Source: a bacterium (GTDB lineage: Bacteria; Myxococcota_A; Bradymonadia; UBA7976; UBA1532). From it: a DNA stretch of 62,168 nt. The DNA is taken from assembly GCA_030426945.1 (NCBI GenBank), contig JAUHXL010000001.1, positions 1 to 62,168 on the forward strand. The letters run 5' to 3'. Every line of letters begins with the position of its first letter. Positions within the stretch are counted from its first letter, which is position 1. The position numbers and the translations under genes were made by a program. Shown piece by piece: positions 14,690-33,884 of the stretch. The notes beneath the pieces are model-generated. The model had not been told where the DNA came from. It saw nothing but the letters and a program-made list of their open reading frames with translations, and made no database searches.

Positions 14690-16168
14690 TCAGGCCCCCT
14701 GAAGCTGACGGATCCGGGCCAGCAGATCGGCGCCGTCGTCCACCGGCTGCGCGGGACGGCGGACCGGGGTGGCCGTGCGGCGCGGGGCGCGGCGCGCCAC
14801 CCGGACGACCGGCTCGTCCTCGACGGCGTCGGCGAGGGCGTCGAGGGCGTCCATCTCGGCCGCCTCGCGCACCGCCTCCTGCTCGCGAGCGAAGAAGTCA
14901 CGCTCGAGGTCGCTGCTCGACACGTCGTCGGTGTCCGCCTCGACCGGGCGCGCCGTCGCCGCGCGGATGCGGGCCACCGCCCGCCCGAGCTTCTCGGCGA
15001 AGGCCCCGACCGGGCTCGAGGGCGGGGTCGTGGCCAGGGCCTCGGCCGCCTCGCGGCCCGGCAGCGCGTCGGCCGGGATGGCCTGGGCGCTGGGCACCAC
15101 CGCCGGCTCGAAGCTCGCCCGCGCCGCGGCGGCGTCCCCCGCCCCGTCGCGGTTGCGATCGATCTTCGTCAACATCTGGACGCCCTTGTCGCTGGTGCCG
15201 AGCAGCACCATCTCGCCGGCGACGTCGACCAGCAGCAGGCTCTGCTTGGGGCCCAGCAGGTGGCTGCCCACCGGCTTGATCAGCGGGCCCTGCCCCGCGC
15301 GGGGCGGGGCGCTGCGCAGCTTCCGCCACATGAACGCGCCGGCGCCGAGCAGCATCAGCAGGGCCATCAGCACCGGGCCCACGCCGGGGCCATCCGCGGG
15401 CGCGCCGGCCATGGCGGCGCTCAGGGGGGCCGCCTCGGCGTCGGCGGCCGTCGGCAGCGCGGTCGCCTCGGGATCGATGGGCTGGGCCTCCTCGAGCGCC
15501 GCGACCCCCTCGACGGGCGCGGCGGCGGGCTCGGGCGCGGCCTCCGCCGGCGCGGGCGCGTCCACCTCGGCCAGCGGCGCGGCCTCGGCGGCGCCCGCGA
15601 CGGCCGCCTCCGCGGCCTGCTCGGCGGCCTCCTCGGCGGCGTCCTCGGGCGCGGCCGGCGCGGCGGCCACCGCCTTCGGCGCGTCACCGGCGGCCCAGTC
15701 GGCCGCGATGGCGTCGGTGCGCGGCACCTGCACCACCAGCGCGCCGCCCTCGCGACGCACCATGATGTTGCGCAGCATCGCGTCGCTCAGCGGCCGCTTC
15801 AGCCGCATCCGCACCACGGCCGCCGGCGCCTGACGCCGCGACGGGTGCAGCAGGGTCCGCTTGACCAGATCATCGGGCGTCTCGAGCCACACCCGGTCGG
15901 CCTGCGTGTTCTCGACCCGCAGCATCAGCACCGGACCCTCGGCGCGCGCCGACAGGTCGGTCTCGGTCAGCGCCGGCGCGGCGTGCAGCGAGAACTCCAG
16001 CGCGTCGTCGGTGCCCACGAAGTCGACCTTCGTCAGCGTCTTGACGACCTCCGCCTGAGCGTTGACGACGCCGGGCGCCACGCCCAGCGTCAGCAGGACG
16101 GCCCACACGGTGGTGGATCGGCCGATCAGGGTGGCTCGGAGCAGGTTTCGCGCGTGGTACGGGCGCAT
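14690..16168 (-). CDS. fliO: atypically large FliO: signal peptide, AMIN-like periplasmic domain, Ala/Pro/Glu linker, TM helix, FliO core, acidic tail
   Basis: The TM helix (VLMALLMLLGAGAFMWRKL) and LIKPVGSHLLGPKQSLLLVDVAGEMVLLGTSDKGVQMLTKI align with E. coli FliO ..LKISASASLGARERVVVVDVEDARLVLGVTAGQINLLHKL. The gene sits immediately upstream of fliP. The N-terminal ~140 aa (VKTLTKVDFVGTDDALEFSLH...GPVLMLRVEN) resemble an AMIN domain. Confidence 0.8.
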   Translation of the reverse strand: MRPYHARNLLRATLIGRSTTVWAVLLTLGVAPGVVNAQAEVVKTLTKVDFVGTDDALEFSLHAAPALTETDLSARAEGPVLMLRVENTQADRVWLETPDDLVKRTLLHPSRRQAPAAVVRMRLKRPLSDAMLRNIMVRREGGALVVQVPRTDAIAADWAAGDAPKAVAAAPAAPEDAAEEAAEQAAEAAVAGAAEAAPLAEVDAPAPAEAAPEPAAAPVEGVAALEEAQPIDPEATALPTAADAEAAPLSAAMAGAPADGPGVGPVLMALLMLLGAGAFMWRKLRSAPPRAGQGPLIKPVGSHLLGPKQSLLLVDVAGEMVLLGTSDKGVQMLTKIDRNRDGAGDAAAARASFEPAVVPSAQAIPADALPGREAAEALATTPPSSPVGAFAEKLGRAVARIRAATARPVEADTDDVSSSDLERDFFAREQEAVREAAEMDALDALADAVEDEPVVRVARRAPRRTATPVRRPAQPVDDGADLLARIRQLQGA

Positions 16169-16256
16169 GGATCCCCCTTCGCAGCGCGTGCAGACGCGCG
16201 GCGTGTGTTCTCGACGGCAATCACTGTCTGGGGCCGTCAGGCTCGGGGGACTCTTT

Positions 16257-16272
16257 TGCAGATGCCGTGCCG
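16257..16272 (-). promoter_or_regulatory. sigma54 promoter upstream of the AMIN-fliO / fliPQR / flhBA string
   Basis: The minus strand reads CGGCAC-GGCAT-CTGCA with exact GG-N10-GC spacing. It lies about 90 nt upstream of the fliO start. Confidence 0.6.
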
Positions 16273-16287
16273 ACCTCGAGGTCGGCA
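16268..16287. repeat. Perfect 20-bp palindrome overlapping the -24 element
   Basis: TGCCGACCTCGAGGTCGGCA is its own reverse complement. It lies 16 nt downstream of the fliN stop. Confidence 0.8.
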
Positions 16288-16302
16288 GCGTTCGACGGTC
16301 GG

Positions 16303-29997: not shown

Positions 29998-32445
29998 TCA
30001 GGGCTTTGACGGCGCCGGGGGTGCGGTGGCCATGCCCGCCTGCTCGACCAAGGCGGCGGCGTCGCGCACGCGCCAGGCGTGCATCGCGCGCTCTTGATCG
30101 GCGAGCCGCCCGTACACGTCGCCCGGCGCCTCGTTCGCCACGATGTCCCACTGCCGCAGGGCCCCGCGGGCGTCGCCGAGGCTCATCAGCGACCGCCCGA
30201 TGAAGAAGCGGGCCTCGAAGCGCTCCGGCGCGTCGGGGAACTCTTCGAGGAAGGTGCCCAGGGCCGCCACCGCGCCGGCGTGGCGCGCGCGCTCGAGCTC
30301 CAGCTCGGCCACCCGCCAGCGGGCGTCGCGGCGCAGGGGCGCGTGGGGGTCGTGGCCCGCCGCGTCGTGCAGCTCGACCTGCGTCTGCAGCGCGTTGATC
30401 GCGCGGTCGACCTCGCCGGTCGCGATGTAGACCTCGGCCACGCGCCCGGCGAGCTCGATGCGCTCGTCCGGCGTCACCGGGCCGTTGAGCGCGTAGACCA
30501 GCATGTCGCGGGCGAGCGCCGGCCGGCCGCTCCACAGGGCGTGGCTGCCCTTGGCCATCCAATACGCGTAGTTGTCGAAGCGGCGCGGGTGGCGGGCGTC
30601 GAGGTAGGCCAGGATCTCCCCGAGTCGGTAGGCGTCCCCCGCCTCGCGCAGCACGCCCGCCATCTCGAGGTACAAGCGGGCCGCCGCGTCCGGCTCGTCC
30701 TCCTCGGTGCGGCCGCCCAGGCCCCGCTGCATCACGCGCAGCGCCTCCTCGACCATCGCCAGGCGCCGGAAGGCGCGGCCCGCCAGCAGGTGCATCTCGC
30801 CCCGCATCGCGTGCGCCTCGTAACGCTTGCGCTGATCGAAGTAGAGCGAGACGGCCCGCAGCGGATGCTCGTTGTCGGCGTGGCGCAAGGCCACCAGATA
30901 CAGGAGGCGGTCGAACAGCTTGGGCGCGCGGGTCAGGATCGGGGAGTCGGGGAAGATGGTCCAGAGCTTCTTGGCGTGGCCGAAGGCGTCCTGAAGGCGA
31001 CCGTCGACGAGGGCCTCGCGGGCGGACGCGACCAGCATCTCCTGAACCACGTAGTCGGTCAGCGCGCCCCGGCGCAGGTTACGCAGGATGCGGCGCCGCT
31101 CGGTCACCTTCGGCGTCAGGCGCGCGATCCGCAGGAAGGCGAGATCCTGACCCTCGGTCTCGCGCAGCGACGAGGCCAGGTCGCGGAACACCTCGACCGC
31201 CGCGGCCGGCGTCTCGAAGGCCAGCAGCTCGCCGAGGCGCACCCGCACCACCCAGTGCGGGAGATCGTCCGGGTAGCGCTCGAGGAAGGTCTCGTACAGC
31301 GCGCGCGCCTCGGGTCGGCGGCCGTACATGAAGTAGAGCTCGGCGGCCTGGAAGAGCGCGGCGGGCTCGTCGGCCAGCAGCTCCGGCCAGGTGCCGCGCA
31401 CGCGATCGAACAGGCCGGCCGCCTGCAGGAAGTCGCCCTCGACGTAGGCCAGGCCGGCCAGGCTGCGCAGCGCGAGGCCCACGACGGGGGCGTCGTCTTC
31501 GAGCGCGCGCAGCGCCTCGAGGATGGGCCGCGCCGCGCGGACATCGCTGGAGCGCATGAGCAGGCGGGCGCGGGCCGCGGCCAGATAGGCCCACCCCGGC
31601 TTGCCGACGAAGTCCTTCTCGCGCAGCTCGAGGTGAAGCTCGGCGCGGCTCTCGTAGCCGAGGCTCTCGAAGAGCTGCGCCGCCAGCAGGACATAGCGCG
31701 TCGCCCGCAGGGGATCCGTGGAGGCGGCCTCGGCGCGCTCGAGGGCGGCGGCCGCGCTGGCCAGCCGCTCGCGCCCCTGATCGACCACCAGCCGGGCCTC
31801 GACCTCGGCGATGACCTGCACCGCCCGCCGCGCCGAGATTCGATCCGGGACCGATTGGTCGACCTCGGCGCACAGCTCGAGGGCGGCCTCGAGCCGACCC
31901 CCCCGCCAGGCCTCGAAGCAGGCGTCGTAGGCCTGCGCGCCGGGCGTGTCGCCCTCGAGGGTGCTGAGGGTGGACGGGGGCAGCGGGATCTCGAACCCCG
32001 ACGGGGCCAGCGGGTACGGCCGGAAGGGCAGCTCCTCCTCGATGGGACCCATCAACGCCGTCGGCGTGCCGATCTCGATGACCCACCGGGGCGGCGCGGG
32101 CAGCACCGCGTCCTGCAGGGTCAGGCCCTCGCGCCGAAGGATGAACCGGACGAAGGGCGACTGCCGGTCGGCGCCGAACTCGACGCCGGCGGCTTCGCTG
32201 GTCGCGAGCCGCTCGATCAGCACGCGAATGCTCGGCGGAATGGCCGACACCCGACAGAAGGACTCGGCGCCACGACGCTCGCACGCGGCGGAGAAGTCGG
32301 GAGGGACGGTCAGCTCGATGCGGCGATACGCTTGGAGGGAGTCGGGCAACTCGGGCGGATCGGCGGCGACCGCTGCCCACGGGCCGGCCAGCAGCAGCGC
32401 ACCGATCAGCGCCCCCGCCCGCGGCGCGCGCGGCCGTTCGCTCAC
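29998..32445 (-). CDS. large secreted TPR-repeat protein with an AMIN-like N-terminal module
   Basis: A GTG start at 32445 forms a GTGA overlap with the stop of the GGDEF gene. The signal peptide is ALIGALLLAGPWAAVAA. The N-terminal ~120 aa end in PPRWVIEIG, which is AMIN-like. About 650 aa of TPR-like helical repeats follow. Confidence 0.75.
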   Translation of the reverse strand: MSERPRAPRAGALIGALLLAGPWAAVAADPPELPDSLQAYRRIELTVPPDFSAACERRGAESFCRVSAIPPSIRVLIERLATSEAAGVEFGADRQSPFVRFILRREGLTLQDAVLPAPPRWVIEIGTPTALMGPIEEELPFRPYPLAPSGFEIPLPPSTLSTLEGDTPGAQAYDACFEAWRGGRLEAALELCAEVDQSVPDRISARRAVQVIAEVEARLVVDQGRERLASAAAALERAEAASTDPLRATRYVLLAAQLFESLGYESRAELHLELREKDFVGKPGWAYLAAARARLLMRSSDVRAARPILEALRALEDDAPVVGLALRSLAGLAYVEGDFLQAAGLFDRVRGTWPELLADEPAALFQAAELYFMYGRRPEARALYETFLERYPDDLPHWVVRVRLGELLAFETPAAAVEVFRDLASSLRETEGQDLAFLRIARLTPKVTERRRILRNLRRGALTDYVVQEMLVASAREALVDGRLQDAFGHAKKLWTIFPDSPILTRAPKLFDRLLYLVALRHADNEHPLRAVSLYFDQRKRYEAHAMRGEMHLLAGRAFRRLAMVEEALRVMQRGLGGRTEEDEPDAAARLYLEMAGVLREAGDAYRLGEILAYLDARHPRRFDNYAYWMAKGSHALWSGRPALARDMLVYALNGPVTPDERIELAGRVAEVYIATGEVDRAINALQTQVELHDAAGHDPHAPLRRDARWRVAELELERARHAGAVAALGTFLEEFPDAPERFEARFFIGRSLMSLGDARGALRQWDIVANEAPGDVYGRLADQERAMHAWRVRDAAALVEQAGMATAPPAPSKP

Positions 32446-33884
32446 GGCAGCCGGTCTTCGGCCACCGCCTGATTGCGACCGCTCTGTTTCGCGACGTAGA
32501 CGCATTGATCCGCGCGCTCGAAGACCTGAGCGAAGGGCTCGTGCCCCCGCACCAGGGCCACCCCGATGCTGGTGCTCACCGCGATGTCGTGGCCATCATG
32601 GTGGACCGGCTTCGCGGCCAGCAGGCGGCAGATGCGGTCGGCGACGGCGCCGCCGATACGCAGATCGCAGTCCGGCAGGACGATCACGAACTCTTCGCCC
32701 CCGTAGCGGGCCAGGAAGTCGATCTCCCGAATGCCCAGCTTGAGTCGGCGCGCGGCCTCGGCCAGAACGCGGTCGCCGCCGAGGTGGCCGTAGGTGTCGT
32801 TGACGCGCTTGAAGTGATCGAGATCGAGCACGAGCACGCAGTACGCCCGCTCCAGGCGACCGTCTCCATCGTAGAGCGTCGACGACACCCACTGATCGAG
32901 GGCCCGGCGGTTGGGCACGCGCGTGAGGGGATCGAGGTTCATCGCCGCGCGCGTCTCGCTCAGCTTCCGCTCGAGCTGCTCGATCTGGTTCTGCGAGGTC
33001 TGCACCTTCTGGCTCAGATCGGTCAGGTGCGACTTCATCGTGGCCGCGCTGCGCGCCGCCTCGGCCGTCTCGGCGACCAGGGCCTTCTGCAGCGTGCGCA
33101 GCTCGCCGAGGTCGTTGCACGCCTCGAGCCGCGCGCGGATGGCGGAGGCACGATCGACGAACTCGTCCGAGCCCGCCGAGGCCGCGCTCAGCTGCTCGGC
33201 CAGCGCACGCAGGACGTCCTTGATGACGGTCTTCTGCTCGTGGACCGGCAGCCCGGTTTGCTCGAAGCGCGCCAGGTGCCCGCTGAGCTCGACGCGCAGG
33301 TTCTGAATCGTCGCCGCGTCGCTGTCCTTCAGCTGGCCCCGAATGGTCGAGAAGGTCTGCCCCACCTCGGGCAGATCGACGAAGGCGCGCCCGATGAAGT
33401 CCACGCAGCTGGCGGCCAGACCCTCGAGCTGCTCGGCGCGCCGGCGGCACTCACGGAGCGTCCGCACCTCATCGCTCGCCGACGCCCGCCGACGGGCGGC
33501 GAAGCCCTCGATCACCTCCAGATGGGGCAAGGCCTCCGCCAGCAGCGCCGACTGGCTCAGACCGCGCAGGGCCGGCACCACCTCGTCCCGGTGGACGCCC
33601 GCCGGATCCGCCGCCGGCACCAGCTGGCAGACCACCGTGCCGAGGCGCTCGACGATCTCCGACTCGCGCTCGCCCTGTCCGCTCGCCGCCCGCCCCGTCA
33701 TGACCTGAAGATCATCGACGATGCGCCGCATCTCGTCGCGCGGCAGACCCCCTTCGGCCGGCACCGCGCGGAGGCGAGCCAACGCCGACCCGAGATCCGG
33801 CCGCGCTGCCCCCGCGACCCGCGCCAATGCGGCGACGAGGACCCCGACCTCGTCGTCGATTCGAACCCGCCCTGCGTCCGCCAC
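32442..33884 (-). CDS. diguanylate cyclase (coiled-coil sensor region plus GGDEF domain with an intact active site and I-site)
   Basis: The C-terminal domain reads LVLDLDHFKRVNDTYGHLGGDRVLAE...REIDFLARYGGEEFVIVL. GGEEF is the A-site. The RxxD motif (REID) lies 5 residues upstream and is the I-site. Confidence 0.9.
   Translation of the reverse strand: MADAGRVRIDDEVGVLVAALARVAGAARPDLGSALARLRAVPAEGGLPRDEMRRIVDDLQVMTGRAASGQGERESEIVERLGTVVCQLVPAADPAGVHRDEVVPALRGLSQSALLAEALPHLEVIEGFAARRRASASDEVRTLRECRRRAEQLEGLAASCVDFIGRAFVDLPEVGQTFSTIRGQLKDSDAATIQNLRVELSGHLARFEQTGLPVHEQKTVIKDVLRALAEQLSAASAGSDEFVDRASAIRARLEACNDLGELRTLQKALVAETAEAARSAATMKSHLTDLSQKVQTSQNQIEQLERKLSETRAAMNLDPLTRVPNRRALDQWVSSTLYDGDGRLERAYCVLVLDLDHFKRVNDTYGHLGGDRVLAEAARRLKLGIREIDFLARYGGEEFVIVLPDCDLRIGGAVADRICRLLAAKPVHHDGHDIAVSTSIGVALVRGHEPFAQVFERADQCVYVAKQSGRNQAVAEDRLP

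Follow-up and report, generated by a model that had tools for sequence, protein, structure and literature searches.

What does a FliO protein carry when it is 492 residues long, and where would the additional parts act? Canonical FliO, as found in Salmonella and E. coli, is regarded as a chaperone that helps FliP/FliR to assemble. The question was raised by an open reading frame (ORF) at 14690..16168 on the minus strand of the window, by which we mean the whole 62,168-nucleotide stretch of contig JAUHXL010000001.1 that was analysed. An earlier annotation made from the DNA alone, here called the sequence-only reading, had delimited the same frame and described it as a giant FliO, in which an AMIN-like periplasmic domain precedes the FliO core. 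We found that the frame, which begins with ATG, is the flagellar fliO gene of an uncultured flagellated Myxococcota bacterium, and that a folded N-terminal domain with the fold-level features of AMIN is stably fused to the core in one family-level clade. On balance we favour, with some reserve, a bitopic FliO in which a wall-anchoring, divergent AMIN-like periplasmic module on a tether would be followed by a single transmembrane (TM) helix, the export-gate core and a partner-docking tail.

The identity of the gene was clear from its own sequence and from its surroundings. The Pfam FliO family PF04347 matched residues 282-352 at 45.9 bits, its cut-off being 22. The NCBIfam equivalog TIGR03500 reached 44.6 bits, under its cut-off of 55.25, the FliO core being divergent but recognisable. 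Strong Pfam matches identified the minus-strand neighbours as flgE, fliL, fliM and fliN upstream, and fliP, fliQ, fliR and flhB downstream. The gene thus fills the canonical fliO slot, flanked by fliN on one side and by fliP/Q/R/flhB on the other. The G+C content at third codon positions (GC3) was 0.88-1.00 in each 50-codon block of the frame and about 0.98 through the linker, so the whole frame looks coding, the low-complexity linker included.

An AlphaFold2 (AF2) model of the full protein was built on a 31-sequence alignment. It gave a beta-sandwich with a predicted local distance difference test (pLDDT) value of 95-97, one TM helix and the FliO sheet. The order of signal peptide, periplasmic beta domain, linker, TM helix, FliO core and tail put forward in the sequence-only reading was borne out by PF04347, the AF2 model, hydropathy and the homologues (Table 1). 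The VNA motif of the signal peptide was kept in homologues, and the peptide is probably cleaved. The following domain was beta-rich, as had been described, with a size of about 120 rather than 140 residues (~41-160); it comprised nine strands and two short helices and was modelled at a pLDDT of ~97. The Ala/Pro/Glu linker, expected at about 100 residues, was found at residues 161-262, with 43% Ala, 15% Pro and 14% Glu and a net charge of -19. The strongest hydrophobic segment of the protein was located at 262-280. Lys and Arg were absent from the 20 residues preceding the TM helix, and five followed it, which fits an N-out/C-in topology. The core carried the invariant block LGPKxxLLLVDVAG...GTSDKGVQMLTKI of the homologue alignment. 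A tail did follow the core, but it was 156 residues long instead of the 130 first estimated and only mildly acidic (net -7), with an acidic helix at 418-448, an Arg-rich patch at 455-472 and, at the C-terminus, a conserved helix. The final 13 residues of the protein (14693-14731) contained the motif DLLxxIRxLQxA, which was nearly invariant among homologues; a search of the genome for other proteins ending in this motif found none.

The long architecture was not confined to this genome. A search of 5.8 billion proteins returned 30 clusters of FliO homologues with lengths of 299-527 residues, and PF04347 matched all 31 family members. The few named homologues came from Myxococcales or Bradymonadia metagenome-assembled genomes (MAGs). 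Every full-length homologue (424-527 aa) had the N-domain, a linker of 78-169 residues, a TM-plus-core part of constant length (74 residues) and a tail of 101-189 residues. Because about 30 homologues have the same architecture, the long FliO is neither a chance occurrence nor an assembly artefact. The order fliM-fliN-[long fliO]-fliP-fliQ-fliR-flhB was preserved in 12 of 12 loci of Myxococcota MAGs and in five further loci of the same family. The N-domain profile was also run on 81 genomes sampled from the class. Matches were obtained in all 20 genomes of the same family and all three of the sister family, and in none of the 57 genomes from the remaining families. Within the family, at least 14 genomes had the domain and the FliO core in a single open frame, the domain directly ahead of the core, whereas the FliO frames of other families were mostly short, mainly 140-260 aa. 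Taken together, the homologues, the synteny and the genome sample indicate that the fusion is clade-specific and stably inherited, and is no artefact.

Additional FliO-type frames were also seen. Some genomes of the same family contained, beside the flagellar copy, a second and shorter fusion of the module with a FliO core (346-369 aa frame; G094:C18:41261-42118 and G090:C121:901-1713). The source genome had a second short FliO-like frame on another contig (C263:3999-4855; at most 105 aa; PF04347, 34 bits), directly upstream of a FliP/SctR homologue with 35% identity to the flagellar FliP. This frame probably belongs to a non-flagellar type III secretion system, and its position beside FliP/SctR fits the FliO published in such systems of Myxococcota (Myxococcus).

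The nature of the N-domain was examined by profile-profile comparison and by fold comparison. Using hhalign, we aligned a 102-sequence N-domain alignment with 20 Pfam-verified AMIN domains of Myxococcota genomes. The match had a probability of 92.1% and an E-value of 6.2e-7, and it covered both domains end to end in 102 collinear, gap-free columns. Reversed or column-shuffled AMIN alignments gave at most 1.1%, and the unrelated families FliN SpoA, FliO core, Fn3 and OmpA at most 2%. A domain-only AF2 model (pLDDT 95.4) was compared with the PDB using Foldseek. E. coli AmiC (4BIN), which contains an AMIN domain, was matched over 121 columns with an E-value of 2.4e-2, a query TM-score (TMq) of 0.57 and a root-mean-square deviation (rmsd) of 3.4 Å. 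This TMq was the best among the 50 matches listed. The two halves of the domain also aligned in the register of the AMIN duplication, though weakly, at 11-13% probability compared with 90% for true AMIN.

Several results weigh against the AMIN assignment. The Pfam AMIN model PF11741 had no match at E<=10 in FliO or its 30 homologues, although the same model detected AMIN in 45 of the 61 Myxococcota genomes sampled, mostly in large frames of about the size of PilQ. A genome-wide scan with PF11741 gave nothing at the fliO locus, and an NCBIfam search of FliO gave no AMIN match. Scanning with both profiles, by which the sequence-only reading would have had the architecture checked, thus recovered FliO but not AMIN, and its AMIN-like domain stands on remote homology and fold. 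A HMMER profile of the N-domain matched only 105 proteins among 1.84 billion representatives, with no canonical AMIN proteins among them; against PDB sequences, the same profile produced small heat-shock protein (HSP) matches only, none of them significant. The canonical AMIN motifs (..VVDLPG.., ..RVVIDL..) were replaced by an Arg/Trp/His-rich signature of RxW, KRxLLHPS and LRVR. Finally, hhalign aligned the N-domain with a Myxococcota HSP20 alignment at 64.8% over 88 columns, one strand being skipped, and Foldseek placed alpha-crystallin domains above AmiC by E-value (8.6e-4). The AMIN likeness is therefore one of remote homology and fold, and the ranking of the small HSPs leaves some ambiguity. 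Given the profile alignment and the superposition, we judge that the N-domain is fairly likely to be a divergent module of the AMIN superfamily. As a separate observation, no Pfam AMIN match reaching the cut-off was present anywhere in the source genome, which is 75.6% complete.

The sequence-only reading knew of no AMIN-FliO fusion, a statement that is now out of date. Andrianova et al. (PNAS 2025, PMC12403147), whose survey of FliO covered more than 30,000 genomes, reported lengths from 80 to more than 500 aa, fusions of an N-terminal AMIN domain to FliO in several phyla, among them Myxococcota, and LysM-FliO in some Myxococcota. In 60 Myxococcota genomes that we scanned, no Pfam-detectable AMIN match coincided with a FliO match, which suggests that the published Myxococcota calls were structure-based; they may well include the present clade. 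Like the AMIN-FliO of C. jejuni and other phyla (PMC12403147), the present protein begins with an AMIN-type domain outside the cytoplasm, crosses the membrane with one TM helix, keeps its FliO sheet in the cytoplasm and is encoded beside fliP. In contrast to theirs, its domain is too divergent for PF11741, and a disordered linker of about 100 residues lies between the domain and the membrane; set against them, too, its core is followed by the long tail with the conserved C-terminal helix. The likeness to LysM-FliO lies in the addition of a periplasmic cell-wall-type module, although the domain is a different one and Pfam LysM had no match in FliO or its homologues. With canonical FliO the protein shares the single pass, the cytoplasmic beta core and the gene position between fliN and fliP, but it is about four times longer, falls under the TIGR03500 cut-off and bears large periplasmic and cytoplasmic additions. 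The domain itself resembles the AMIN of AmiC (4BIN) and PilQ in being a periplasmic beta-sandwich of about 100-120 residues that is N-terminal in an envelope protein, and differs from it in the lack of canonical motifs and in its faint internal duplication.

The same module occurs in proteins other than FliO. Among 92 module-bearing representatives scanned, the query excluded, it was joined to FliO in 20, to an OmpA peptidoglycan-binding domain in 14, to DUF5683 in six, to FlgO in four, and to ExbD/TolR and CsgG in one each. Four paralogues were found on other contigs of the source genome (C434:1516-1854, C578:4430-4747, C306:2538-2879 and C570:2038-2346; L039-L042). Each consisted of a signal peptide, the module, a Pro-rich linker and then a FlgO-like/DUF5683 or DUF7790 part. 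Its recurrence in OmpA-family, FlgO, DUF5683, ExbD and CsgG-like proteins marks the module as a mobile periplasmic unit of envelope proteins, in agreement with the general behaviour of AMIN domains. One further candidate, the Fn3-repeat protein P0099, was excluded as a false positive arising from summed weak repeats of about 7 bits each. Among the carriers, the OmpA-family outer-membrane proteins (P0051, P0053, P0065-P0067 and P0082, all metagenomic representatives) were about 600-800 aa long and consisted of a beta-barrel, TSP3 repeats and the OmpA domain, with the module at the C-terminus.

This distribution bears on what the module would bind. In the OmpA family it adjoins a domain that already binds peptidoglycan, so the module may bind something else, a point that tells against wall anchoring. 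Whether AMIN-like or a generic beta-sandwich, the periplasmic domain might instead be a protein-protein docking module that does not bind peptidoglycan and that links FliO to the module-bearing OmpA-family and FlgO/DUF5683 proteins, perhaps via homotypic contacts or a shared ligand. The recurrence counted above, the presence of four paralogues within the same genome and a conserved surface signature unlike the canonical AMIN motifs would all be expected of such a module. However, the paralogues lie on other contigs and are not visibly flagellar, and canonical AMIN domains bind peptidoglycan even though they are present in many unrelated envelope proteins. We regard pure docking as unlikely, though it deserves serious attention. 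Only with considerable speculation can the idea be taken further, to a module that serves as a common 'address tag' in a trans-envelope network specific to the lineage, in which FliO, OmpA-family and FlgO/DUF5683 proteins dock at the same periplasmic site. If this improbable arrangement were true, there would be a basal-body-associated scaffold analogous to, but independent of, the periplasmic disks of Campylobacter and Vibrio, and the C-terminal helix of FliO would couple that scaffold to a cytoplasmic export component.

A relationship to HSP20 was the weaker alternative to AMIN at the level of the fold. The N-domain would then be an HSP20/alpha-crystallin-like periplasmic module of the holdase type, and the chaperoning by FliO would extend to the periplasmic loops of the export gate. 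The ranking noted above was consistent, as the top 44 Foldseek matches in the PDB were alpha-crystallin domains of small HSPs, and a weak HMMER match to wheat HSP16.9 (E 0.2) lay over C-terminal strands of the ...GxLxVxVPK type. The geometry did not follow the ranking. Superposition on the alpha-crystallin domains was poor (TMq 0.35-0.48, rmsd 7-16 Å) compared with that on AmiC, and the profile alignment with HSP20 missed a whole strand that the gap-free AMIN alignment retained. AMIN-FliO fusions have a published precedent and HSP20-FliO fusions have none; Pfam HSP20 (PF00011) had no match in FliO or its homologues. An HSP20-like holdase thus appears quite improbable.

It is least credible of all that the frame yields two products, with the beta domain secreted as one protein and a FliO of normal size initiated within the gene just ahead of the TM helix, or that the fusion itself is artefactual. 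ATG/GTG codons do occur in frame at residues 253, 263, 266 and 268, and Salmonella fliO has alternative starts. However, no Shine-Dalgarno-like sequence precedes any of these codons, and Met253 is not conserved, while AAGGGGGA ahead of the annotated ATG favours initiation at residue 1. A stop codon, which a secreted N-terminal product would require, is absent, GC3 stays high throughout the linker, and the fused frame is kept in at least 14 independent genomes despite variable linkers. The internal start, which the sequence-only reading had itself raised as an objection, thus found no support.

We return to the preferred reading, a FliO anchored to the wall by a divergent AMIN-like module. The product would be a bitopic inner-membrane protein. 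After cleavage of the signal peptide, a beta-sandwich of about 120 residues would reside in the periplasm, a location favoured by the predicted topology and by the occurrence of the module in envelope proteins. It would hang on the flexible, acidic Ala/Pro-rich tether, whose roughly 100 residues should be ample to reach the wall. The TM helix would span the membrane once, leaving the beta-sheet core and the helical tail in the cytoplasm. Judging from published work on Salmonella and C. jejuni (PMC12403147), the core may there chaperone or scaffold the assembly of the FliP/FliQ/FliR(/FlhB) export gate, as it does elsewhere. If the periplasmic module works as in AmiC, PilQ and C. jejuni FliO, it may anchor or position FliO, and with it the export gate under assembly, on peptidoglycan or some other fixed part of the envelope. 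In C. jejuni FliO the AMIN domain was needed for full FlhB stability, normal amphitrichous flagellation and chick colonisation, but the deletion phenotypes were modest (PMC12403147), a point against such a role. The conserved helix at the C-terminus is probably a docking site for a partner in the cytoplasm.

The positions of the features are collected in Table 1. The sigma54-type element in the gap between fliN and fliO agreed with TGGCACG-N4-TTGCW at 10 of 12 specified positions, and fliOPQR-flhB may have its own sigma54 promoter. A GCCGACCTCGAGGTCGGC palindrome overlapped this element (16257-16290, minus strand).

Table 1. Features of the fliO gene and its upstream gap, in window coordinates.
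Feature	Position	Strand	Residues	Description and basis
Sigma54-type promoter-like element	16257..16272	-		CGGCACG-N4-CTGCA in the fliN-fliO gap; read from sequence
Shine-Dalgarno-like AAGGGGGA	16172..16180	-		strong; 4-5 nt ahead of the fliO ATG
Signal peptide (predicted)	16058..16168	-	1-37	basic n-region, hydrophobic core, VNA/QA site; sequence and hydropathy
Periplasmic AMIN-like beta-sandwich domain	15689..16057	-	38-160	AF2, pLDDT 95-97
Disordered acidic Ala/Pro/Glu linker	15383..15688	-	161-262	pLDDT <50
Single TM helix	15311..15382	-	263-286	AF2; positive-inside flank WRKLRSAPPR
Cytoplasmic FliO core	15161..15310	-	297-336	four-stranded beta-sheet at the residues given; PF04347, AF2 strands
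Cytoplasmic tail	14690..15160	-	337-492	156 aa; helices 390-406, 418-448 and 480-491

Elsewhere in the window, a secreted TPR protein of 835 aa was encoded upstream of flgB (29998-32505, minus strand). Its N-terminus was considered as a further AMIN-like region and rejected; Pfam gave TPR families only, hhalign to AMIN reached 1.4%, and there was no match to the FliO N-domain profile in a single-sequence test. A PflA-like role of this protein is possible.

The AMIN-FliO fusion as such has been known since 2025, and the general picture is unchanged by the present case. What is new is a divergent AMIN-like subfamily that is missed by Pfam and restricted to one family-level clade, the sharing of its module with OmpA-type, FlgO and DUF5683 proteins, and a conserved motif in the cytoplasmic tail. 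An elaborate and well-supported case is thereby added to the FliO proteins that bear a periplasmic domain of the cell-wall type, and surveys based on Pfam overlook a whole clade of them. The work also defines a small, clade-restricted AMIN-like subfamily that FliO has in common with OmpA-type proteins and further proteins of the envelope. Should the module indeed tie the export-gate chaperone to the wall, this would bear on how the flagellated Myxococcota, a group known only from metagenomes, fix the sites at which their flagella are assembled.
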